Shown in pieces: positions 4,117 through 10,153 of a stretch of DNA of 30,145 nucleotides. The position numbers were made by a program, and so were the translations under genes. This DNA comes from a virus. The stretch lies in the IMG/VR virus record IMGVR_UViG_3300031578_000247, positions 1-30,145 of that record, one strand, 5' to 3'. Below the pieces are notes generated by a model, which made no database searches, was not told the DNA's origin, and saw only the letters and a list, made by a program, of their open reading frames with translations. Position 1 is the first letter of the stretch. The number at the start of each line of letters is the position of its first letter.

Positions 4117-5196
4117 ATGTTAAAAGTAGGAAGCGACTTTTCGGGGGTTGGTGCATTTAATCAAGCCTTAATAAGATTAGGAAAACAATATAAAGAAGTT
4201 TTTGCGTGTGATATGGATAAATACGCACGACAAACATTTATAGAAAATTACGGAGAGCCAGAATACTATCCGACAAATGTTTACGATCGTAAAATACCTA
4301 TAGATAGTTTAGATATTTATATGACTTCTCCACCTTGTCAAGCATTTTCGTTAGCGGGAAAACGATTAGGAAAAGACGATAAACGCGGAATTTTATTCTT
4401 TAATTCTTACGAGTTTATTCAAGTAAACAAACCACGTTTTTTTATATTTGAAAATGTTAAGGGATTACTTTCGGACGATAACGGTAAGACCTTTAGTGAA
4501 TGGGTAAATATGTTAGGTGGTAAATCAGTTAACGGAGTACCAGTATTATTCCCTTACGAAGAATCCGTTCCTTATCATTTATATTGGAAAGTTCTAAACG
4601 CAAAAGAACACGGAGTACCACAAAACCGAGAACGTGTGTTTTTAATTGGTATTCGAGACGATTCGGATAATAAGTTTCAATTTCCAAAAGAAGAACATTT
4701 AACAAAACGTCTTAAAGACGTATTAGAAGAAAACGTAGAAGAAAAGTATTTTTTAAGCGAAAAAATGATTTCTCATTTAAATAATTACGAAAGGAGCGTT
4801 CCTTTTATTAATGAAAATACAATAAATGTAAAAACGATAACTTCCAACTATTCAAAACAAAGTAGCGATTTACAATATTTAAAAATTAAAAGCGCAACCG
4901 CCAAAGGTTACGAAGAAGCAACCGAAGGAGATTCAATAAATTTTAGTGTATTAAATAGTGAAACAAGAAGGGGAAGGGTAGGTAAACAAGTAGCACAAAC
5001 GTTAGATACTGCGTGCAATCAAGGGGTAATAAATAATTTTCAAATAAGACGTTTAACACCCCGTGAATGTTTTCGATTAATGGACTTCCCAAATACCTTT
5101 ACTTGGCCTGTATCGGATTCACAAGCATACAAACAAGCGGGTAATTCAATAGTAGTAAACGTTCTTTACAAAATACTAAAAAATTTGCCGTTATGA
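4117..5196 (+). CDS. dcm: DNA (cytosine-5)-methyltransferase
   Basis: All canonical C5-MTase motifs are present: I DFSGVGAF, IV PPCQAFS, VI FENVKGL, VIII QNRERVF, IX RRLTPRECFRLMDFP, X GNSIVVNV. Confidence 0.95.
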   Translation: MLKVGSDFSGVGAFNQALIRLGKQYKEVFACDMDKYARQTFIENYGEPEYYPTNVYDRKIPIDSLDIYMTSPPCQAFSLAGKRLGKDDKRGILFFNSYEFIQVNKPRFFIFENVKGLLSDDNGKTFSEWVNMLGGKSVNGVPVLFPYEESVPYHLYWKVLNAKEHGVPQNRERVFLIGIRDDSDNKFQFPKEEHLTKRLKDVLEENVEEKYFLSEKMISHLNNYERSVPFINENTINVKTITSNYSKQSSDLQYLKIKSATAKGYEEATEGDSINFSVLNSETRRGRVGKQVAQTLDTACNQGVINNFQIRRLTPRECFRLMDFPNTFTWPVSDSQAYKQAGNSIVVNVLYKILKNLPL

Positions 5197-5717
5197 GGTG
5201 CAAAAACTGCAAAGCCGTATTTACCCCCGTTAAGTTTAATCAAAAATATTGCTTAGAATCCGATTGCGTTCGTGTTTGGGTAGAATCGGAAAAGGAAAAG
5301 CAATGGAAGAAGAAGAAGAAACAATTAAAAGACGAACTCCAAACCTTACCCGAGTTACTTAAATTAGCTCAAATAACGTTTAACAAGTACATACGACTAA
5401 GGGATAAAGATAAACCTTGTGTAAGTTGTGAAAAGCCGTTAGGAGCGAAATATGACGCGGGACACTATTTTAGTATGGGTGGACACAAAGCCGTAACATT
5501 TGACGAAGACAACGTACACGCTCAATGCGTAACGTGCAACCAGTACAAACACGGAAACTTATTGAATTACCAAATAGGAATACAACAAAGAATAGGAGCA
5601 GATAGGTTATTAGAATTACATTCCCGCGCTCACGATGTCAAGAAGTGGACAAAAGACGAACTAAACGAAATTATTAAACGCTATAAACAAAAGATAAATG
5701 ATTTCCAACAAGGCTAA
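5193..5717 (+). CDS. ninG: NinG/Rap-family recombination protein
   Basis: N-terminal CKNC..YC..DC zinc ribbon, then FNKYIRLRDKDKPCVSCEK...AGHYFS....VTFDEDNVHAQCVTCNQYKHGN, which matches the lambda NinG family pattern. ATGA overlap with the methyltransferase gene. Confidence 0.85.
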   Translation: MRCKNCKAVFTPVKFNQKYCLESDCVRVWVESEKEKQWKKKKKQLKDELQTLPELLKLAQITFNKYIRLRDKDKPCVSCEKPLGAKYDAGHYFSMGGHKAVTFDEDNVHAQCVTCNQYKHGNLLNYQIGIQQRIGADRLLELHSRAHDVKKWTKDELNEIIKRYKQKINDFQQG

Positions 5718-6201
5718 AGAACTATCGAGTAACGAACACATTCAGCACTCACAAGAAACGGGAACGCAAGGCGAATACAATTTTATTCAAGCGTGTAAAA
5801 AAAACAAAATCGAATTTAAGAAATCTACCGCAAACGAGGATATATTTTCGCACGTGGACTTCTTTATTTACGGAAAAGGAATAGACGTTAAAGGCTATAA
5901 AAAAAGCCACTCCGAGGGGTTTATAGTTGTTGAGTTTAAGAACGTAAACGGGTACGCTGGTAGTTGCTCAAACGAATCTAACGCGGAATGGATAGCGTTT
6001 CAATTCGAGGAATGTTTTTGGATAGTACGAAAAGACGAACTATTAAGGTACTGCCGTAAAAACGTTAAAGTAGAAATGGTAAGCGAGTTTAAGGATTGTT
6101 ATAAGAAACTATACACCCGTAAAGACCGCAAAGACTTAATGACAAGGCTACATTTAAGCGACCTTAAAACCTTTAATTTTATTTGGAAGTTAAAGTTTTA
6201 G
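5698..6201 (+). CDS. Hypothetical protein with a possible PD-(D/E)xK nuclease core
   Basis: E..(GEYNFIQ), then HVDFF, then GIDVKGYKK, giving an E / D / (D/E)xK arrangement on predicted strand-helix elements. Motif-level only. Confidence 0.35.
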   Translation: MISNKAKELSSNEHIQHSQETGTQGEYNFIQACKKNKIEFKKSTANEDIFSHVDFFIYGKGIDVKGYKKSHSEGFIVVEFKNVNGYAGSCSNESNAEWIAFQFEECFWIVRKDELLRYCRKNVKVEMVSEFKDCYKKLYTRKDRKDLMTRLHLSDLKTFNFIWKLKF

Positions 6202-6659: not shown

Positions 6660-7187
6660 ATGAAACATTTATTTAAATCGTTGGCAGCCTTCCAACAGGA
6701 AGTACCCGTAATTCACAAGGGTACACAAGGCTTCGGGTATAGTTACGCAGATTTACCCGCTATCTTTGAAAAGATTAACCCACTACTAAAGAAACACGGA
6801 TTAGGGTTTACGCAGTTGTTAGACACTAAAGAAGGTGTCGACTATATTGCTACCGTTATTTTCCATATTGAAAGTGGCGAAACTTTAGAATCTAAAGTAG
6901 CCATTCCACAAGTTACGTTAAAAGGAATGAACGATTACCAATCATTCGGAAGCGGGGTTACTTACTTTAGAAGATACGCGCTTAGTTCCGCACTCGGATT
7001 AGTTACCGACAAAGACACGGACGCAAGTGGCGAACAAGTAAAACACGAACCAAAGAAACCTAATATCGACCAAAAGCGTTTAGGCAAAGCCTTAGAAGCA
7101 ATCGCAGAAGGTAAATACACTAAGGACGAACTACTGGCGAACTTTAGTTTAACTGATTCTCAAATCAAATTACTCGAAAACGTATGA
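6660..7187 (+). CDS. erf: ERF-family single-strand annealing recombinase
   Basis: FGYSYADLPAIFEKINPLLKKHGL...HIESGE...QSFGSGVTYFRRYALSSALGLVTDKDTDA matches the Erf family signature (Y.YA.L, sGe, G...TY.rRY, D.DdD). Confidence 0.85.
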   Translation: MKHLFKSLAAFQQEVPVIHKGTQGFGYSYADLPAIFEKINPLLKKHGLGFTQLLDTKEGVDYIATVIFHIESGETLESKVAIPQVTLKGMNDYQSFGSGVTYFRRYALSSALGLVTDKDTDASGEQVKHEPKKPNIDQKRLGKALEAIAEGKYTKDELLANFSLTDSQIKLLENV

Positions 7188-7855
7188 AAGTCCGATGTTC
7201 TCAAATTGGTAAGATAATGACTAACCCCCGCAAGACGGGGGAAGTCCTAAGCCAAACCGCAAAAACCTACGTTCAAGACCTTGTCTTAGAAGAAAAATAC
7301 GGAATCCGTAAAGAATTTAGTTCACGTTATACCGACAAGGGTAACGAAGTAGAAGACTTGTCGATAGCGTTAGTTAACGAGGTACTGAATTACAAGTTTA
7401 TCTATAAGAACGACGAACACTTTAACAACGAATGGGTAACGGGTACGCCCGACGTAAACACGGACGAAGTATTAATAGACGTTAAAAGCAGTTGGGACGC
7501 TTCTACGTTCCCGTTCTTCGAAACTGAGTTACCTAATAAAGATTACTTTTACCAACTTCAAGGGTATATGTGGCTTACTGGAAAAACGGAATCCGTGTTA
7601 GCTTATTGTTTGATCGACACCCCGTTAGAAATGGTAGAAGACGAAGTAAGACGAGCGCATTGGAAGTTACACTTAATCGAAGAAAACACGGAAGTAAGAA
7701 ACGAAATAGAATCTAAACACAAGTTCGGACATATACCAAACAACCGCAGAGTTAAATATTGGTTCGTTCAACGCGACGAATCCGTAATAGAAGCAATCAA
7801 AGAACGCGTGGAGCTATGCCGTGAATACTATAACTTATTAATGAAAACGATATGA
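7184..7855 (+). CDS. PD-(D/E)xK recombination exonuclease (lambda Exo / YqaJ / Cas4-like fold)
   Basis: GTPDV...LIDVKSSWD...YYQLQGYMWLTG gives the D, ExK-type and QxxxY motifs. It is ATGA-coupled to erf, the typical SSAP-exonuclease pairing. Confidence 0.6.
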   Translation: MKVRCSQIGKIMTNPRKTGEVLSQTAKTYVQDLVLEEKYGIRKEFSSRYTDKGNEVEDLSIALVNEVLNYKFIYKNDEHFNNEWVTGTPDVNTDEVLIDVKSSWDASTFPFFETELPNKDYFYQLQGYMWLTGKTESVLAYCLIDTPLEMVEDEVRRAHWKLHLIEENTEVRNEIESKHKFGHIPNNRRVKYWFVQRDESVIEAIKERVELCREYYNLLMKTI

Positions 7856-8133
7856 CACTTTTTAACTTAGACGAATTTTCGGAAGATTGGAAAAAACATT
7901 ATATAGGAATGCCCGAATATAATAACGTAAAACCTTTGCCACCCGAAATAACCGCTACTTTTAAGTTTAGAAATAAAGAAGATTTTGATAAATTTATGCA
8001 AGTAGTTAAAGAATTGTTATACGATAATAAAAGAGTATTTGACGGAAAACAAAAAAAGAACGAGTATTCTGCTTGGTTTCCTTTAGATTCAAGACCTTCG
8101 GAACATATTTATATAGTACAAAATGAAAAATAA
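7852..8133 (+). CDS. Hypothetical protein, 93 aa, coupled to the glycosyltransferase gene
   Basis: ORF track. Contains W..HYIGMPEY...ATFKFRNKEDFDKF...SAWFP. Overlaps the next gene by 11 nt. Visibly AT-richer than the flanks. Confidence 0.7.
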   Translation: MTLFNLDEFSEDWKKHYIGMPEYNNVKPLPPEITATFKFRNKEDFDKFMQVVKELLYDNKRVFDGKQKKNEYSAWFPLDSRPSEHIYIVQNEK

Positions 8134-8953
8134 ATACCCAATTTATGTACCGACAAAAGGAAGGTTTGAAAGTAGAAAAACCATAAAAGCCCTTTTGGAA
8201 ATAGGAGCAGAATTTAAGGCGGTTATTGAGCCACAAGAATACGATTTATACAAAACAATACTTGACGATAGTTATATTCTTGTTTTGCCATTTTCAAAAC
8301 CTACCGACCATTCAATGTTAGTAACCGTTAGAAATTGGATTAAAGAACATTCAATAAACGAAGGGCATAAAAGGCATTGGCAATTAGACGATAATATCAA
8401 GGCTTTTTATAGAATGAACAATAACAAACGAAATAAGGTATTATCTCCCGTTATATTTAGATGCGTAGAAGATTTTGTAGACAGGTACAAAAACGTAGCT
8501 ATGGCTGGATTAAACTATATGAATTACGCAATACCCGACGGAAGGCCACCATATTTTTTGAATAGTAGAGTTTATTCGATGAGTTTAGTAAACAATGAAC
8601 TACCTTACCAATGGCGTGGAATATATAATGACGATACCGATATATGCTTAAGGATGTTAAAAGACGGATATTGCACAATAAATTTTAACGCGTTTTCGGG
8701 GGATAAAGATGCCACTATGGTAACAAAAGGAGGAAATACCCCTATTTACACGACGGGAGATTTAAGAAGCAATTTTGTAGATAGTTTAATAGAACAACAC
8801 CCCGATGTAGTTAAAAAAGTATGGCGGTTTAATAGGTGGCATCACGAAGTAAATTACAAACCTTTTGCGAAAAATAAATTAATACTTAAACAAGGAATAC
8901 AAATAGAAAATAAAGTAAATGAATACGGAATGAAATTAATTAAAACAATATGA
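8123..8953 (+). CDS. Putative GT-A-fold glycosyltransferase (resembles phage DNA-base / TET-associated glycosyltransferases)
   Basis: N-terminal PIYVPTKGR strand-loop; DxD-like WQLDDNI; a second acidic cluster YNDDTDICLR. Family assignment is from memory of the TAGT/GREB1-like pattern and was not searched. Confidence 0.4.
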   Translation: MKNKYPIYVPTKGRFESRKTIKALLEIGAEFKAVIEPQEYDLYKTILDDSYILVLPFSKPTDHSMLVTVRNWIKEHSINEGHKRHWQLDDNIKAFYRMNNNKRNKVLSPVIFRCVEDFVDRYKNVAMAGLNYMNYAIPDGRPPYFLNSRVYSMSLVNNELPYQWRGIYNDDTDICLRMLKDGYCTINFNAFSGDKDATMVTKGGNTPIYTTGDLRSNFVDSLIEQHPDVVKKVWRFNRWHHEVNYKPFAKNKLILKQGIQIENKVNEYGMKLIKTI

Positions 8954-9165
8954 ACATAACACAAGAAAACGAGCCAATAAAACACGAAGACACTATTCTA
9001 GTTTCGGTAATGACAAAGTACCACGAACGGAGTAAACGCGGGATACGAAAATACGGAACGAACTTAGATAGAAAAGACGTTGATTTATTAGGGTGGTTAA
9101 ACCACTTACAAGAAGAACTAATGGACGCTACTTTATACATAGAAAAACTAAAGAAGGAAATATGA
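8950..9165 (+). CDS. Small all-alpha protein, possibly MazG-like NTP pyrophosphohydrolase fold
   Basis: ERSKRGIRKYG...LLGWLNHLQEELMDATLYIEKL has the kYG...W...L.EE..D..Y pattern. At 71 aa it is short for a full MazG. Confidence 0.3.
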   Translation: MNITQENEPIKHEDTILVSVMTKYHERSKRGIRKYGTNLDRKDVDLLGWLNHLQEELMDATLYIEKLKKEI

Positions 9166-9631: not shown

Positions 9632-9871
9632 ATGGAAACAAAAAACAACACGGGAGCAATCTTTAAGAACGACAAAAAGACGAAGGAAACGCAACCCGAC
9701 TACCGAGGTAAAGTAAACGTAAACGGAAAAGAAATGGAAATAGCGTTATGGCTTAAAGAATCTTCCAAAGGCACAAAGTATTTTTCGTGTTCATTTAGCG
9801 AGCCATATGTGAACGAAACACCGAAACAAGTTCACACCCAAGTAATAGAAAAAGACGATTTACCCTTTTAA
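9632..9871 (+). CDS. Hypothetical protein, 79 aa (possibly DUF736-like)
   Basis: GAIFKNDKKTKETQPDYRGKVNVNGKEMEIALWLKESSKGTKYFSCSF resembles the PDYR...aW.k.s.kG..Y.S pattern. Confidence 0.6.
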   Translation: METKNNTGAIFKNDKKTKETQPDYRGKVNVNGKEMEIALWLKESSKGTKYFSCSFSEPYVNETPKQVHTQVIEKDDLPF

Positions 9872-10089: not shown

Positions 10090-10116
10090 ACCCCGCCGTA
10101 AAAAGTGGGGTTTTTT
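10090..10116 (+). terminator. Rho-independent terminator ending early cassette 2
   Basis: ACCCCGC (10090-10096) pairs with GTGGGGT (10105-10111), including one G-U pair, with an 8-nt loop, then a T-run to 10116. Confidence 0.75.
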
Positions 10117-10123
10117 GTAAAAT

Positions 10124-10153
10124 TTTGTGTTTAGAAATTAATCATTATATTTG
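10124..10153 (+). promoter_or_regulatory. Promoter 3, Bacteroidota sigma-A type (-33 TTTG at 10124-10127; -7 TAtaTTTG at 10146-10153), driving the sigma-factor gene
   Basis: Consensus match with an 18-nt spacer, located between the terminator and the start at 10170. Confidence 0.6.

Follow-up and report, generated by a model that had tools for sequence, protein, structure and literature searches.

Organization of the adaptor and glycosyltransferase genes

The window analysed here, IMG/VR record IMGVR_UViG_3300031578_000247, is a complete viral genome of 30,145 bp with direct terminal repeats. It contains a pair of overlapping genes that encode a protein of 93 amino acids (aa) and a 276-aa GT-A glycosyltransferase of the TAGT family, and that together form a candidate DNA-modifying enzyme. 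The smaller protein, referred to here as the adaptor, is the dedicated partner domain of a subclass of TAGTs, the adaptor-linked TAGTs. An earlier note, made from the sequence alone, had described the region 7852-9165 as an AT-rich island holding a possible DNA modification module composed of these two genes and a 71-aa neighbour. The three ORFs and their overlaps (7852-8133, 8123-8953 and 8950-9165, all on the + strand) are as described there. The features of the pair are as follows.

7852-8133, + strand: adaptor ORF, 93 aa; a stand-alone copy of an undescribed domain of about 80 aa that pairs with a TAGT subclass
7906-7920, + strand: GMPEY motif, adaptor residues 19-23; M20 and P21 are invariant; core of the predicted interface
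8074-8082, + strand: W-x-P motif of the adaptor; W75 and P77 are invariant in the alignment
8123-8133, + strand: overlap of 11 nt that spans the start codon of TAGT and the stop codon of the adaptor, read directly from the sequence (translational coupling)
8123-8953, + strand: TAGT-family GT-A glycosyltransferase, 276 aa, putative catalytic subunit (PF20691, phrog_842)
8387-8395, + strand: D89-D90-N91, the DxD-type metal and nucleoside diphosphate (NDP)-sugar motif; invariant (n=32); corresponds to the 'DDD' of R...DDD...EDY/F
8468-8476, + strand: E116-D117-F118; E116 is invariant, and D117 and F118 are conserved in at least 90% of sequences (n=32); matches 'EDY/F'
8627-8641, + strand: N169-D-D171-T-D173, second acidic cluster; N169, D171 and D173 are invariant (n=32)
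8903-8947, + strand: TAGT C-terminal tail, residues 261-275, N-x-YGM-x-L; predicted adaptor-docking segment beyond the Pfam domain

The arrangement recurs in many related loci, in which the upstream adaptor-bearing ORF, short or long, likewise ends about 10 nt beyond the TAGT start.

The glycosyltransferase

The 276-aa protein matches the Pfam family TAGT (PF20691) with an E value of 1.7e-38 and 133.1 bits, against a cut-off of 27.5. The match runs from residue 5 to residue 204 and covers profile positions 1-205 of 205, that is, the entire domain. The same protein matches phrog_842, 'beta-glucosyl-HMC-alpha-glucosyltransferase' (E 6.9e-41). The earlier note had assigned it to a family of phage DNA glycosyltransferases, and this full-length match shows the assignment to be correct. 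The motifs that it quoted also fall on conserved columns: PxKGR contains the invariant R14, HWQLDDN contains H85, W86, D89, D90 and N91, and NDDTD is the second acidic cluster.

Conservation was assessed in an alignment of 32 sequences, in which the relatives are 42-90% identical to the window protein. Residues R14, R70, H85, W86, D89, D90, N91, E116, N169, D171, D173 and K195 are invariant, and the C-terminal tail is kept in the adaptor-linked TAGTs. The motif set R...DD(D/N)...ED(Y/F) is present in the window protein; R...DDD...EDY/F is the motif of phage GT-A enzymes that glycosylate 5-hydroxymethylcytosine (5hmC) in DNA, and of JGT (Pyle et al. 2023). The ratio of nonsynonymous to synonymous substitution rates (dN/dS) against close relatives is 0.04-0.07, indicating purifying selection. 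The catalytic motifs of the window TAGT are thus intact, and the enzyme looks active. Its isoelectric point (pI) is 9.3, which was taken as fitting a DNA context.

An AlphaFold2 model built from the alignment of 32 relatives has a GT-A fold (mean pLDDT 89.5, pTM 0.90). A Foldseek search with this model, a check that the earlier note had proposed for 8123-8953, returned the GT-A fold at E ~1e-5, and an independent exhaustive VIA search gave Z scores of up to 14.3. The top matches in both were all GT-A transferases and included COLGALT1, SpsA, GnT-I, POMGNT1 and the prophage enzyme TarP. A search of PDB sequences with the TAGT gave nothing significant (best E 0.19); neither a close homologue nor a comparable complex has been solved.

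The adaptor domain and its linkage to TAGT

The 93-aa protein matched no Pfam or PHROG family. It has more than 100 close homologue clusters, every one labelled 'hypothetical', and an adaptor profile searched against 1.84 billion representatives retrieved 3,407 clusters at E<=1e-3, 2,078 of them at E<=1e-10. The adaptor gene is under purifying selection against its close relatives (dN/dS 0.10-0.39).

Linkage between the two proteins was examined in 80 IMG/VR loci containing relatives of the TAGT (39-90% TAGT identity), using an adaptor hidden Markov model over 3 kb on either side. An adaptor domain lies within 3 kb of the TAGT in 76 of the 80. As for the other four loci, at least two are truncated by the contig end, and two have a TAGT identical to that of an adaptor-bearing locus. 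Among the 76, the adaptor is adjacent and upstream in 50, farther upstream in 15, downstream in eight and within the TAGT ORF itself in three.

The domain occurs in several architectures. A stand-alone ORF of about 70-140 aa, as in the window, is present in 44 of the 80 loci, while in 28 the adaptor forms the C-terminal ~80 residues of a protein of about 170-360 aa. Eight of these 28 long proteins were scanned, and seven have an N-terminal ParB_N domain (PF02195). The window protein has no match to ParB_N, and its alignment with the homologues that bear this domain is confined to their last ~80 residues. In two cultured phages the adaptor is an N-terminal extension of the TAGT (E ~1.5e-13 in each): Vibrio phage 1.076.O NVP1076O_12 (390 aa) and Aeromonas phage 65 ST65p128 (398 aa). 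A sample of longer library matches contained adaptor–TAGT fusions at either terminus, together with a tandem double form. One of these proteins, P0329 (979 aa), has two TAGT domains and several adaptor stretches, and is apparently a tandem duplication of the fused form. The module is also carried by the cultured Aeromonas phages Aeh1 and phiAS5 and by Tenacibaculum phage PTm1.

A quick TAGT tree requires at least five changes between the stand-alone and ParB-fused states. The clade to which the window belongs is fully supported and comprises eight stand-alone forms and one TAGT-fused form. These changes of state, and the existence of free, ParB-tail and TAGT-fused forms, indicate that the adaptor is the constant partner of TAGT and that the ParB head is optional. 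In the closest relatives the genes flanking the pair differ; adaptor and TAGT therefore move together as a two-gene cassette. The coupling of the 93-aa ORF to the glycosyltransferase, which the earlier note had guessed from the overlap, is thus tighter than supposed, given the linkage in 76 of 80 loci and the fusions. A literature search found no paper describing the adaptor domain or the adaptor-linked TAGT subclass.

Two further library proteins, P0246 and P0356, have the adaptor N-terminal to enzymes of other kinds, namely a Gly_transf_sug (PF04488) DXD glycosyltransferase and an FkbM-type methyltransferase (PF05050), with one fusion each. It is possible that the adaptor serves modifying enzymes more generally, as a module for docking or targeting.

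Predicted adaptor–TAGT complex

Complex prediction with the window adaptor and TAGT gave ipSAE values of 0.88, 0.87 and 0.88, against 0.01 for the best control. The mark used is attained by 58 of 80 solved complexes and by two of 110 mismatched pairs, a calibration that is only rough here because the alignments used were our own. At least 85% of the contacts are shared between runs, with a partner pLDDT of at least 75. The predicted interface comprises adaptor residues 9-28, including the invariant M20 and P21, and 80-90. On the TAGT it comprises residues 97-118 (a beta-hairpin and a helix C-terminal to the DxD motif, beside E116-F118), 138-146, 189-190 and the tail, 261-275. The lowest-error contacts are those of adaptor residues 20-23. 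The prediction and the natural fusions support binding and suggest that the two proteins form a complex.

A comparison with Nonlabens phage P12024L, a cultured 35.6 kb phage of Bacteroidota, bears on this interface. P12024L has a cluster of gp26 (a 2-oxoglutarate- and iron-dependent dioxygenase, PF12851), gp27 (a TAGT) and gp28 (a methyltransferase). Its TAGT is 27% identical to that of the window over residues 7-209 but stops short of the C-terminal tail, and its genome contains no adaptor domain at E<=1 with a profile that recovers the window ORF at 1.2e-30. The predicted interface was judged consistent because it is built on the invariant M20 and P21 and on the conserved TAGT tail, while the P12024L TAGT lacks the tail and its genome lacks the adaptor. 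From this it follows that the family splits into a TET-coupled subclass, which lacks tail and adaptor, and an adaptor-coupled subclass, which has the C-terminal tail and for which the adaptor is an obligatory genomic partner.

In other respects the two are alike. The canonical TET–TAGT clusters, comprising that of P12024L and the C5-methyltransferase/5mYOX/GT-A clusters of Burke et al. 2021 and Pyle et al. 2023, share with the window the PF20691 domain, the GT-A fold and the motifs (R, DDx and ED-aromatic). P12024L, like the window, is a small phage with a TAGT in its early/replication region and with Erf, exonuclease, single-stranded DNA-binding protein (SSB) and sigma-like genes. Unlike P12024L, the window has no dioxygenase, either adjacent or detected elsewhere in the genome, and it has the additional TAGT tail and the adaptor protein.

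Absence of detectable acceptor-making enzymes

A six-frame search for Tet_JBP (PF12851) found no match in the window genome and none in the 50 full records of related loci; 11 of these records reach a completeness of 90% or more. The same search detected phage Cooper gp2 (4e-8) and P12024L gp26 (2.8e-29) as positive controls, and therefore works on phage enzymes. The thymidylate-synthase family (PF00303), which includes the dCMP and dUMP hydroxymethylases, was likewise absent from the window and from the 11 near-complete relatives; it was found in three of the 50 records overall. The only member of this family in Aeromonas phage 65 is td, beside frd, and Vibrio phage 1.076.O has neither Tet_JBP nor the thymidylate-synthase family. 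The earlier note had seen no TET/JBP or thymidylate-synthase homologue, hydroxymethylases included, and this holds for the complete genome, with two positive controls for TET. As the genome is complete, the absence of a recognizable hydroxymethyl route is genuine and not a product of contig truncation.

The C5-cytosine methyltransferase that the earlier note had placed at 4117-5196 is also real (PF00145, E 2e-70), but such an enzyme is encoded in only one of the 50 relatives' records. 5-Methylcytosine (5mC) therefore cannot be a general precursor, the methylase of the window is incidental to the module, and its role as a pathway partner was ruled out. Adaptor-linked TAGT is thus independent of detectable TET/JBP enzymes, of thymidylate-synthase-type enzymes and of C5-methyltransferase. 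The window TAGT has no genomic association with TET/JBP or another source of hydroxymethyl-pyrimidine, and its membership of PF20691 by sequence is unaffected by this.

These findings bear on the canonical alternative, in which the TAGT would act on a 5-hydroxymethyl-pyrimidine supplied by a divergent phage hydroxylase, by the host or by oxidation of 5mC. The characterized relatives of the TAGT all use a hydroxyl on a hydroxymethyl-pyrimidine or on its sugar, and the phage does encode a C5-methyltransferase. In addition, PF12851 misses thousands of 5mYOX-like sequences from phages (O'Toole et al., PNAS 2026, PMC13229309), and several late genes of the window, encoding 150-360 aa, are without annotation. 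Against this, PF12851 is missing from the window and all 50 relatives yet detects both control phages, the thymidylate-synthase family is missing from the window and the 11 near-complete relatives, and the C5-methyltransferase is found in a single relative. The early window ORFs of at least 170 aa are each already assigned to another family, and a 167-aa early protein resembles PD-(D/E)xK nucleases, although this is a lead only. Moreover, the TET-coupled TAGT of P12024L, which lacks both tail and adaptor, represents a subclass that differs in structure. A canonical route for the window enzyme is accordingly considered improbable.

The 167-aa ORF (5698-6201) was considered as a hidden dioxygenase, since an H-x-D is present, but this was unsupported. 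The protein has a D...D-x-K pattern, and its nearest named Atlas clusters are PDDEXK_14 and NOV_C. A homologue with 32% identity lies about 3 kb upstream of the TAGT in one related locus (L008). Clustering of the neighbourhoods for a recurrent unannotated acceptor-making enzyme yielded two families without a Pfam match, which are present in subsets of the loci only and not in the window. Examples are L042:10524-11441 (~306 aa) and L018:7985-8833 (~283 aa).

Comparison with ParB-assisted and T-even systems

The ParB_N head of the long adaptors has a parallel in a characterized system. ParB176 activates the thymine dioxygenase 5mYOX176, specifically on double-stranded DNA (dsDNA) (O'Toole et al., PNAS 2026, PMC13229309). 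It is a small dedicated partner without a classical DNA-binding domain, and both its N-terminal and C-terminal domains are required (PMC13229309). The relatives of the window resemble this system in combining a modifying enzyme with a ParB-type partner, the ParB_N head carrying the adaptor tail beside the TAGT. They differ in that the partner enzyme is a glycosyltransferase, and the window itself has the tail domain alone, with no ParB head. ParB genes in phage base-modification clusters were noted by Burke et al. and O'Toole et al. (PMC13229309). ParB folds are also often fused to phage DNA methyltransferases, in a survey that names methyltransferase and DUF fusions but not the adaptor tail (PMC12704722). 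In Mycobacterium phage Cooper (L084/L085, NC_008195; 1-1753, at the genome end), a ParB-like gene 1 overlaps gene 2, which has a TET/JBP domain and is annotated as a queuine tRNA-ribosyltransferase. Cooper genes 1 and 2 are a further pair of a ParB and a base-modifying enzyme.

The beta-glucosyl-HMC alpha-glucosyltransferase of T2 and T6 belongs to the same PHROG (phrog_842) and the same Pfam family as the window TAGT. The transferase of T6 that adds the second glucose is a family member which uses a sugar hydroxyl, and not just the hydroxymethyl of a base, as acceptor. Unlike the window, in which no such genes are detectable, T6 makes hydroxymethylcytosine by means of a dCMP hydroxymethylase and adds the first glucose with an alpha-glucosyltransferase. 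The search of cultured phages, at E 1e-5, did not recover T2 or T6, which are hence more distant.

Genome setting and base composition

The pair lies in an early operon with recombination and replication genes, among the following features.

4117-5196: C5-cytosine methyltransferase (PF00145)
6660-7187: Erf, in the early operon shared with the adaptor and TAGT
7184-7855: RecE/YqaJ-like exonuclease, in the same operon
8950-9165, + strand: 71-aa ORF, a neighbour gene outside the module
9632-9871: SSB-like protein, in the same operon

Genes for a replisome organiser, a helicase-like protein, the C5-cytosine methyltransferase and NinG lie 5' of the recombination genes. The junction between the exonuclease gene and the 93-aa ORF is an ATGA overlap, as is that between the TAGT and the 71-aa ORF, both read directly. 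Consensus scans, which unusual signals could escape, found no + strand terminator, no Bacteroidota-type promoter and no convincing sigma-70-type promoter within 7852-9165. The operon ends at a terminator at 10090-10111, beyond which lies a promoter (10124-10153).

The G+C content of 7852-9165 is 0.323, compared with 0.373 for the genome, and lies at the 2.9th percentile of windows of the same size. The dip is due to the adaptor gene and the TAGT gene, in which G+C at the third codon position (GC3) is 0.22 and 0.28, respectively; GC3 in the flanking exonuclease gene is 0.45. The earlier note had called the island low in both G+C and CG dinucleotides. The first part stands, but no CpG depletion was found (observed/expected 1.54, compared with 1.69 for the genome; 13th percentile). 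Its suggestion of acquisition as a moron also needs amending. The genes overlap their neighbours in a translationally coupled operon, and with no internal promoter or terminator found by the sigma-70 or Bacteroidota consensus an autonomous moron seems unlikely; the changing contexts of the pair and its low GC3 do agree with acquisition. Adaptor and TAGT behave as a mobile two-gene cassette within the operon, with a low GC3 that fits acquisition from elsewhere. GC3 in the C5-methyltransferase gene is also 0.22, equal to that of the adaptor gene, so that horizontal acquisition is conceivable for the methyltransferase gene as well.

A GC3 below that of the flanking genes, together with the varied contexts in relatives, would also be expected of a recently acquired cassette that is decaying, or a neutral passenger, and has no current role. 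Both genes, however, are intact and under purifying selection, the catalytic residues are invariant, the translational coupling is preserved and the pair is conserved across loci with 39-90% TAGT identity. It is very improbable that the pair is a passenger of this kind.

The 71-aa gene, which the earlier note had included in the module as MazG-like, does not belong to it. No homologue of its product was found in any of the 80 TAGT loci, and its G+C content, 0.356, is ordinary. The protein has no MazG or NTP-pyrophosphatase signal: there was no Pfam match at E<=0.1, no PDB sequence below E 0.65, and the best named Atlas neighbour, YosH_C, scored 0.77, under the lead threshold. The MazG-like assignment was therefore rejected. 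It represents a very abundant family of small phage proteins, with 1,782 homologue clusters of which almost every one is unnamed or labelled 'hypothetical'. It matches only PHROGs that lack an assigned function and is equivalent to the C-terminal part of PHROG families of 140-168 aa.

Neighbouring genes in related loci

Recurrent neighbours of TAGT in related loci are genes for DNA polymerase B, portal, terminase, UDP-glucose dehydrogenase, S-adenosylmethionine (SAM)-dependent methyltransferases and HSP20. An N6/N4 DNA methylase and recombination genes also occur among the neighbours. A UDP-glucose/GDP-mannose dehydrogenase (seven loci) and a class-I SAM methyltransferase (seven loci) adjoin adaptor-linked TAGTs, for example at L041:4260-5447, L018:9156-10001 and L024:10834-11658. 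Sugar-nucleotide and methyltransferase genes beside a TAGT fit real sugar chemistry, and the donor in some phages may be a uronic acid and the sugar may be methylated.

Proposed function and target

The best explanation of these observations, with a probability of roughly 0.6, is that adaptor and TAGT form a two-subunit transferase which acts on phage DNA independently of the known hydroxymethyl routes. The 276-aa TAGT, with its intact DxD-type centre, would be the catalytic subunit and should use an NDP-sugar donor. The adaptor is predicted to clamp, through the GMPEY motif and its C-terminal strand, onto the 97-118 hairpin and helix and the 261-275 tail of the TAGT. In sister phages the ParB head probably loads the enzyme on dsDNA, by analogy with the action of ParB176 on the thymine dioxygenase. 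The pair would be expressed as part of the early operon, which also holds the Erf, exonuclease and SSB genes. It most likely glycosylates phage DNA following replication. The ParB_N heads of the long adaptors, the recombination and replication context, the neighbouring genes and the TAGT pI all count towards a DNA target.

Several points weigh against this interpretation. No DNA modification has been shown by experiment for any adaptor-linked TAGT. All characterized members of the family use a hydroxyl acceptor, and the window genome supplies none; conversely, the unannotated late genes might conceivably include a very divergent hydroxylase, as 5mYOX enzymes can escape PF12851. All matches of the fold searches are generic GT-A enzymes, the substrates of which are proteins, glycans or teichoic acid. 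The 93-aa protein modelled alone has a pLDDT of 66, too low for use in fold searches, although this would fit a protein that gains order upon binding. The occasional fusion of the adaptor to transferases other than TAGT means that it may recognize a common substrate rather than the TAGT itself. Finally, the fused adaptor–TAGT gene of Vibrio phage 1.076.O (L081, MG592452; 4686-5855) lies between portal and head-morphogenesis genes, a position that is unusual for a DNA-modifying enzyme and that would fit a virion-protein target.

Some of these points lead to the alternative that the pair adds its sugar not to DNA but to another acceptor, for instance a protein of the virion or host, a polymer of the cell envelope or a small nucleotide. 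The adaptor would then recognize this acceptor or a docking partner. A non-DNA acceptor would account for the lack of a detected acceptor-making enzyme, for the nearest solved folds (TarP of a prophage among them), for the Vibrio phage arrangement, for the frequent proximity of the module to terminase and portal genes and for the fusion of the adaptor to other transferases. About 65% of phage glycosyltransferase contigs, moreover, have no 5mYOX or thymidylate-synthase neighbour and are considered less obviously DNA-directed (Pyle et al. 2023). DNA, on the other hand, is the target of the characterized PF20691 relatives, namely the second-glucose transferase of T6 and the GT-A enzymes that modify 5hmC. 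The long form of the adaptor occurs in 28 of the 80 loci, with ParB_N matched in seven of the eight proteins scanned, and the window module is located in a recombination/replication operon and not among structural genes. An envelope target is further disfavoured in that no signal peptide or membrane segment was seen in either protein, as judged by eye only. A non-DNA target is thus a serious alternative, if a rather unlikely one.

The reading as a DNA-directed transferase allows a more specific proposal, in which adaptor-linked TAGTs place a sugar on a DNA acceptor other than a 5-hydroxymethyl-pyrimidine, for example a canonical base or the backbone, with access provided by the adaptor, with or without a ParB head. 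This is speculative and improbable. If true, it would constitute a new DNA-modification chemistry.

Significance

Glycosylation of phage DNA is a major counter-defence against restriction and CRISPR, and it supplies enzymes used in epigenetic sequencing. Every known route begins with a hydroxymethyl-pyrimidine, and the contigs without a base-modification neighbour were left unexplained by Pyle et al. The window contributes a minimal, ParB-less form of the module in a complete genome, and its analysis adds the fusions to TAGT that occur in cultured phages, an adaptor family as large as 3,407 representative clusters and the dichotomy between tail-and-adaptor and TET-coupled TAGTs. Recognition of the adaptor family accounts for the tail seen in many 'ParB-like' proteins of phages, and it provides a simple marker for such modules. 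The cultured carriers make the target of these orphan TAGTs directly testable by liquid chromatography–tandem mass spectrometry (LC-MS/MS) of nucleosides.

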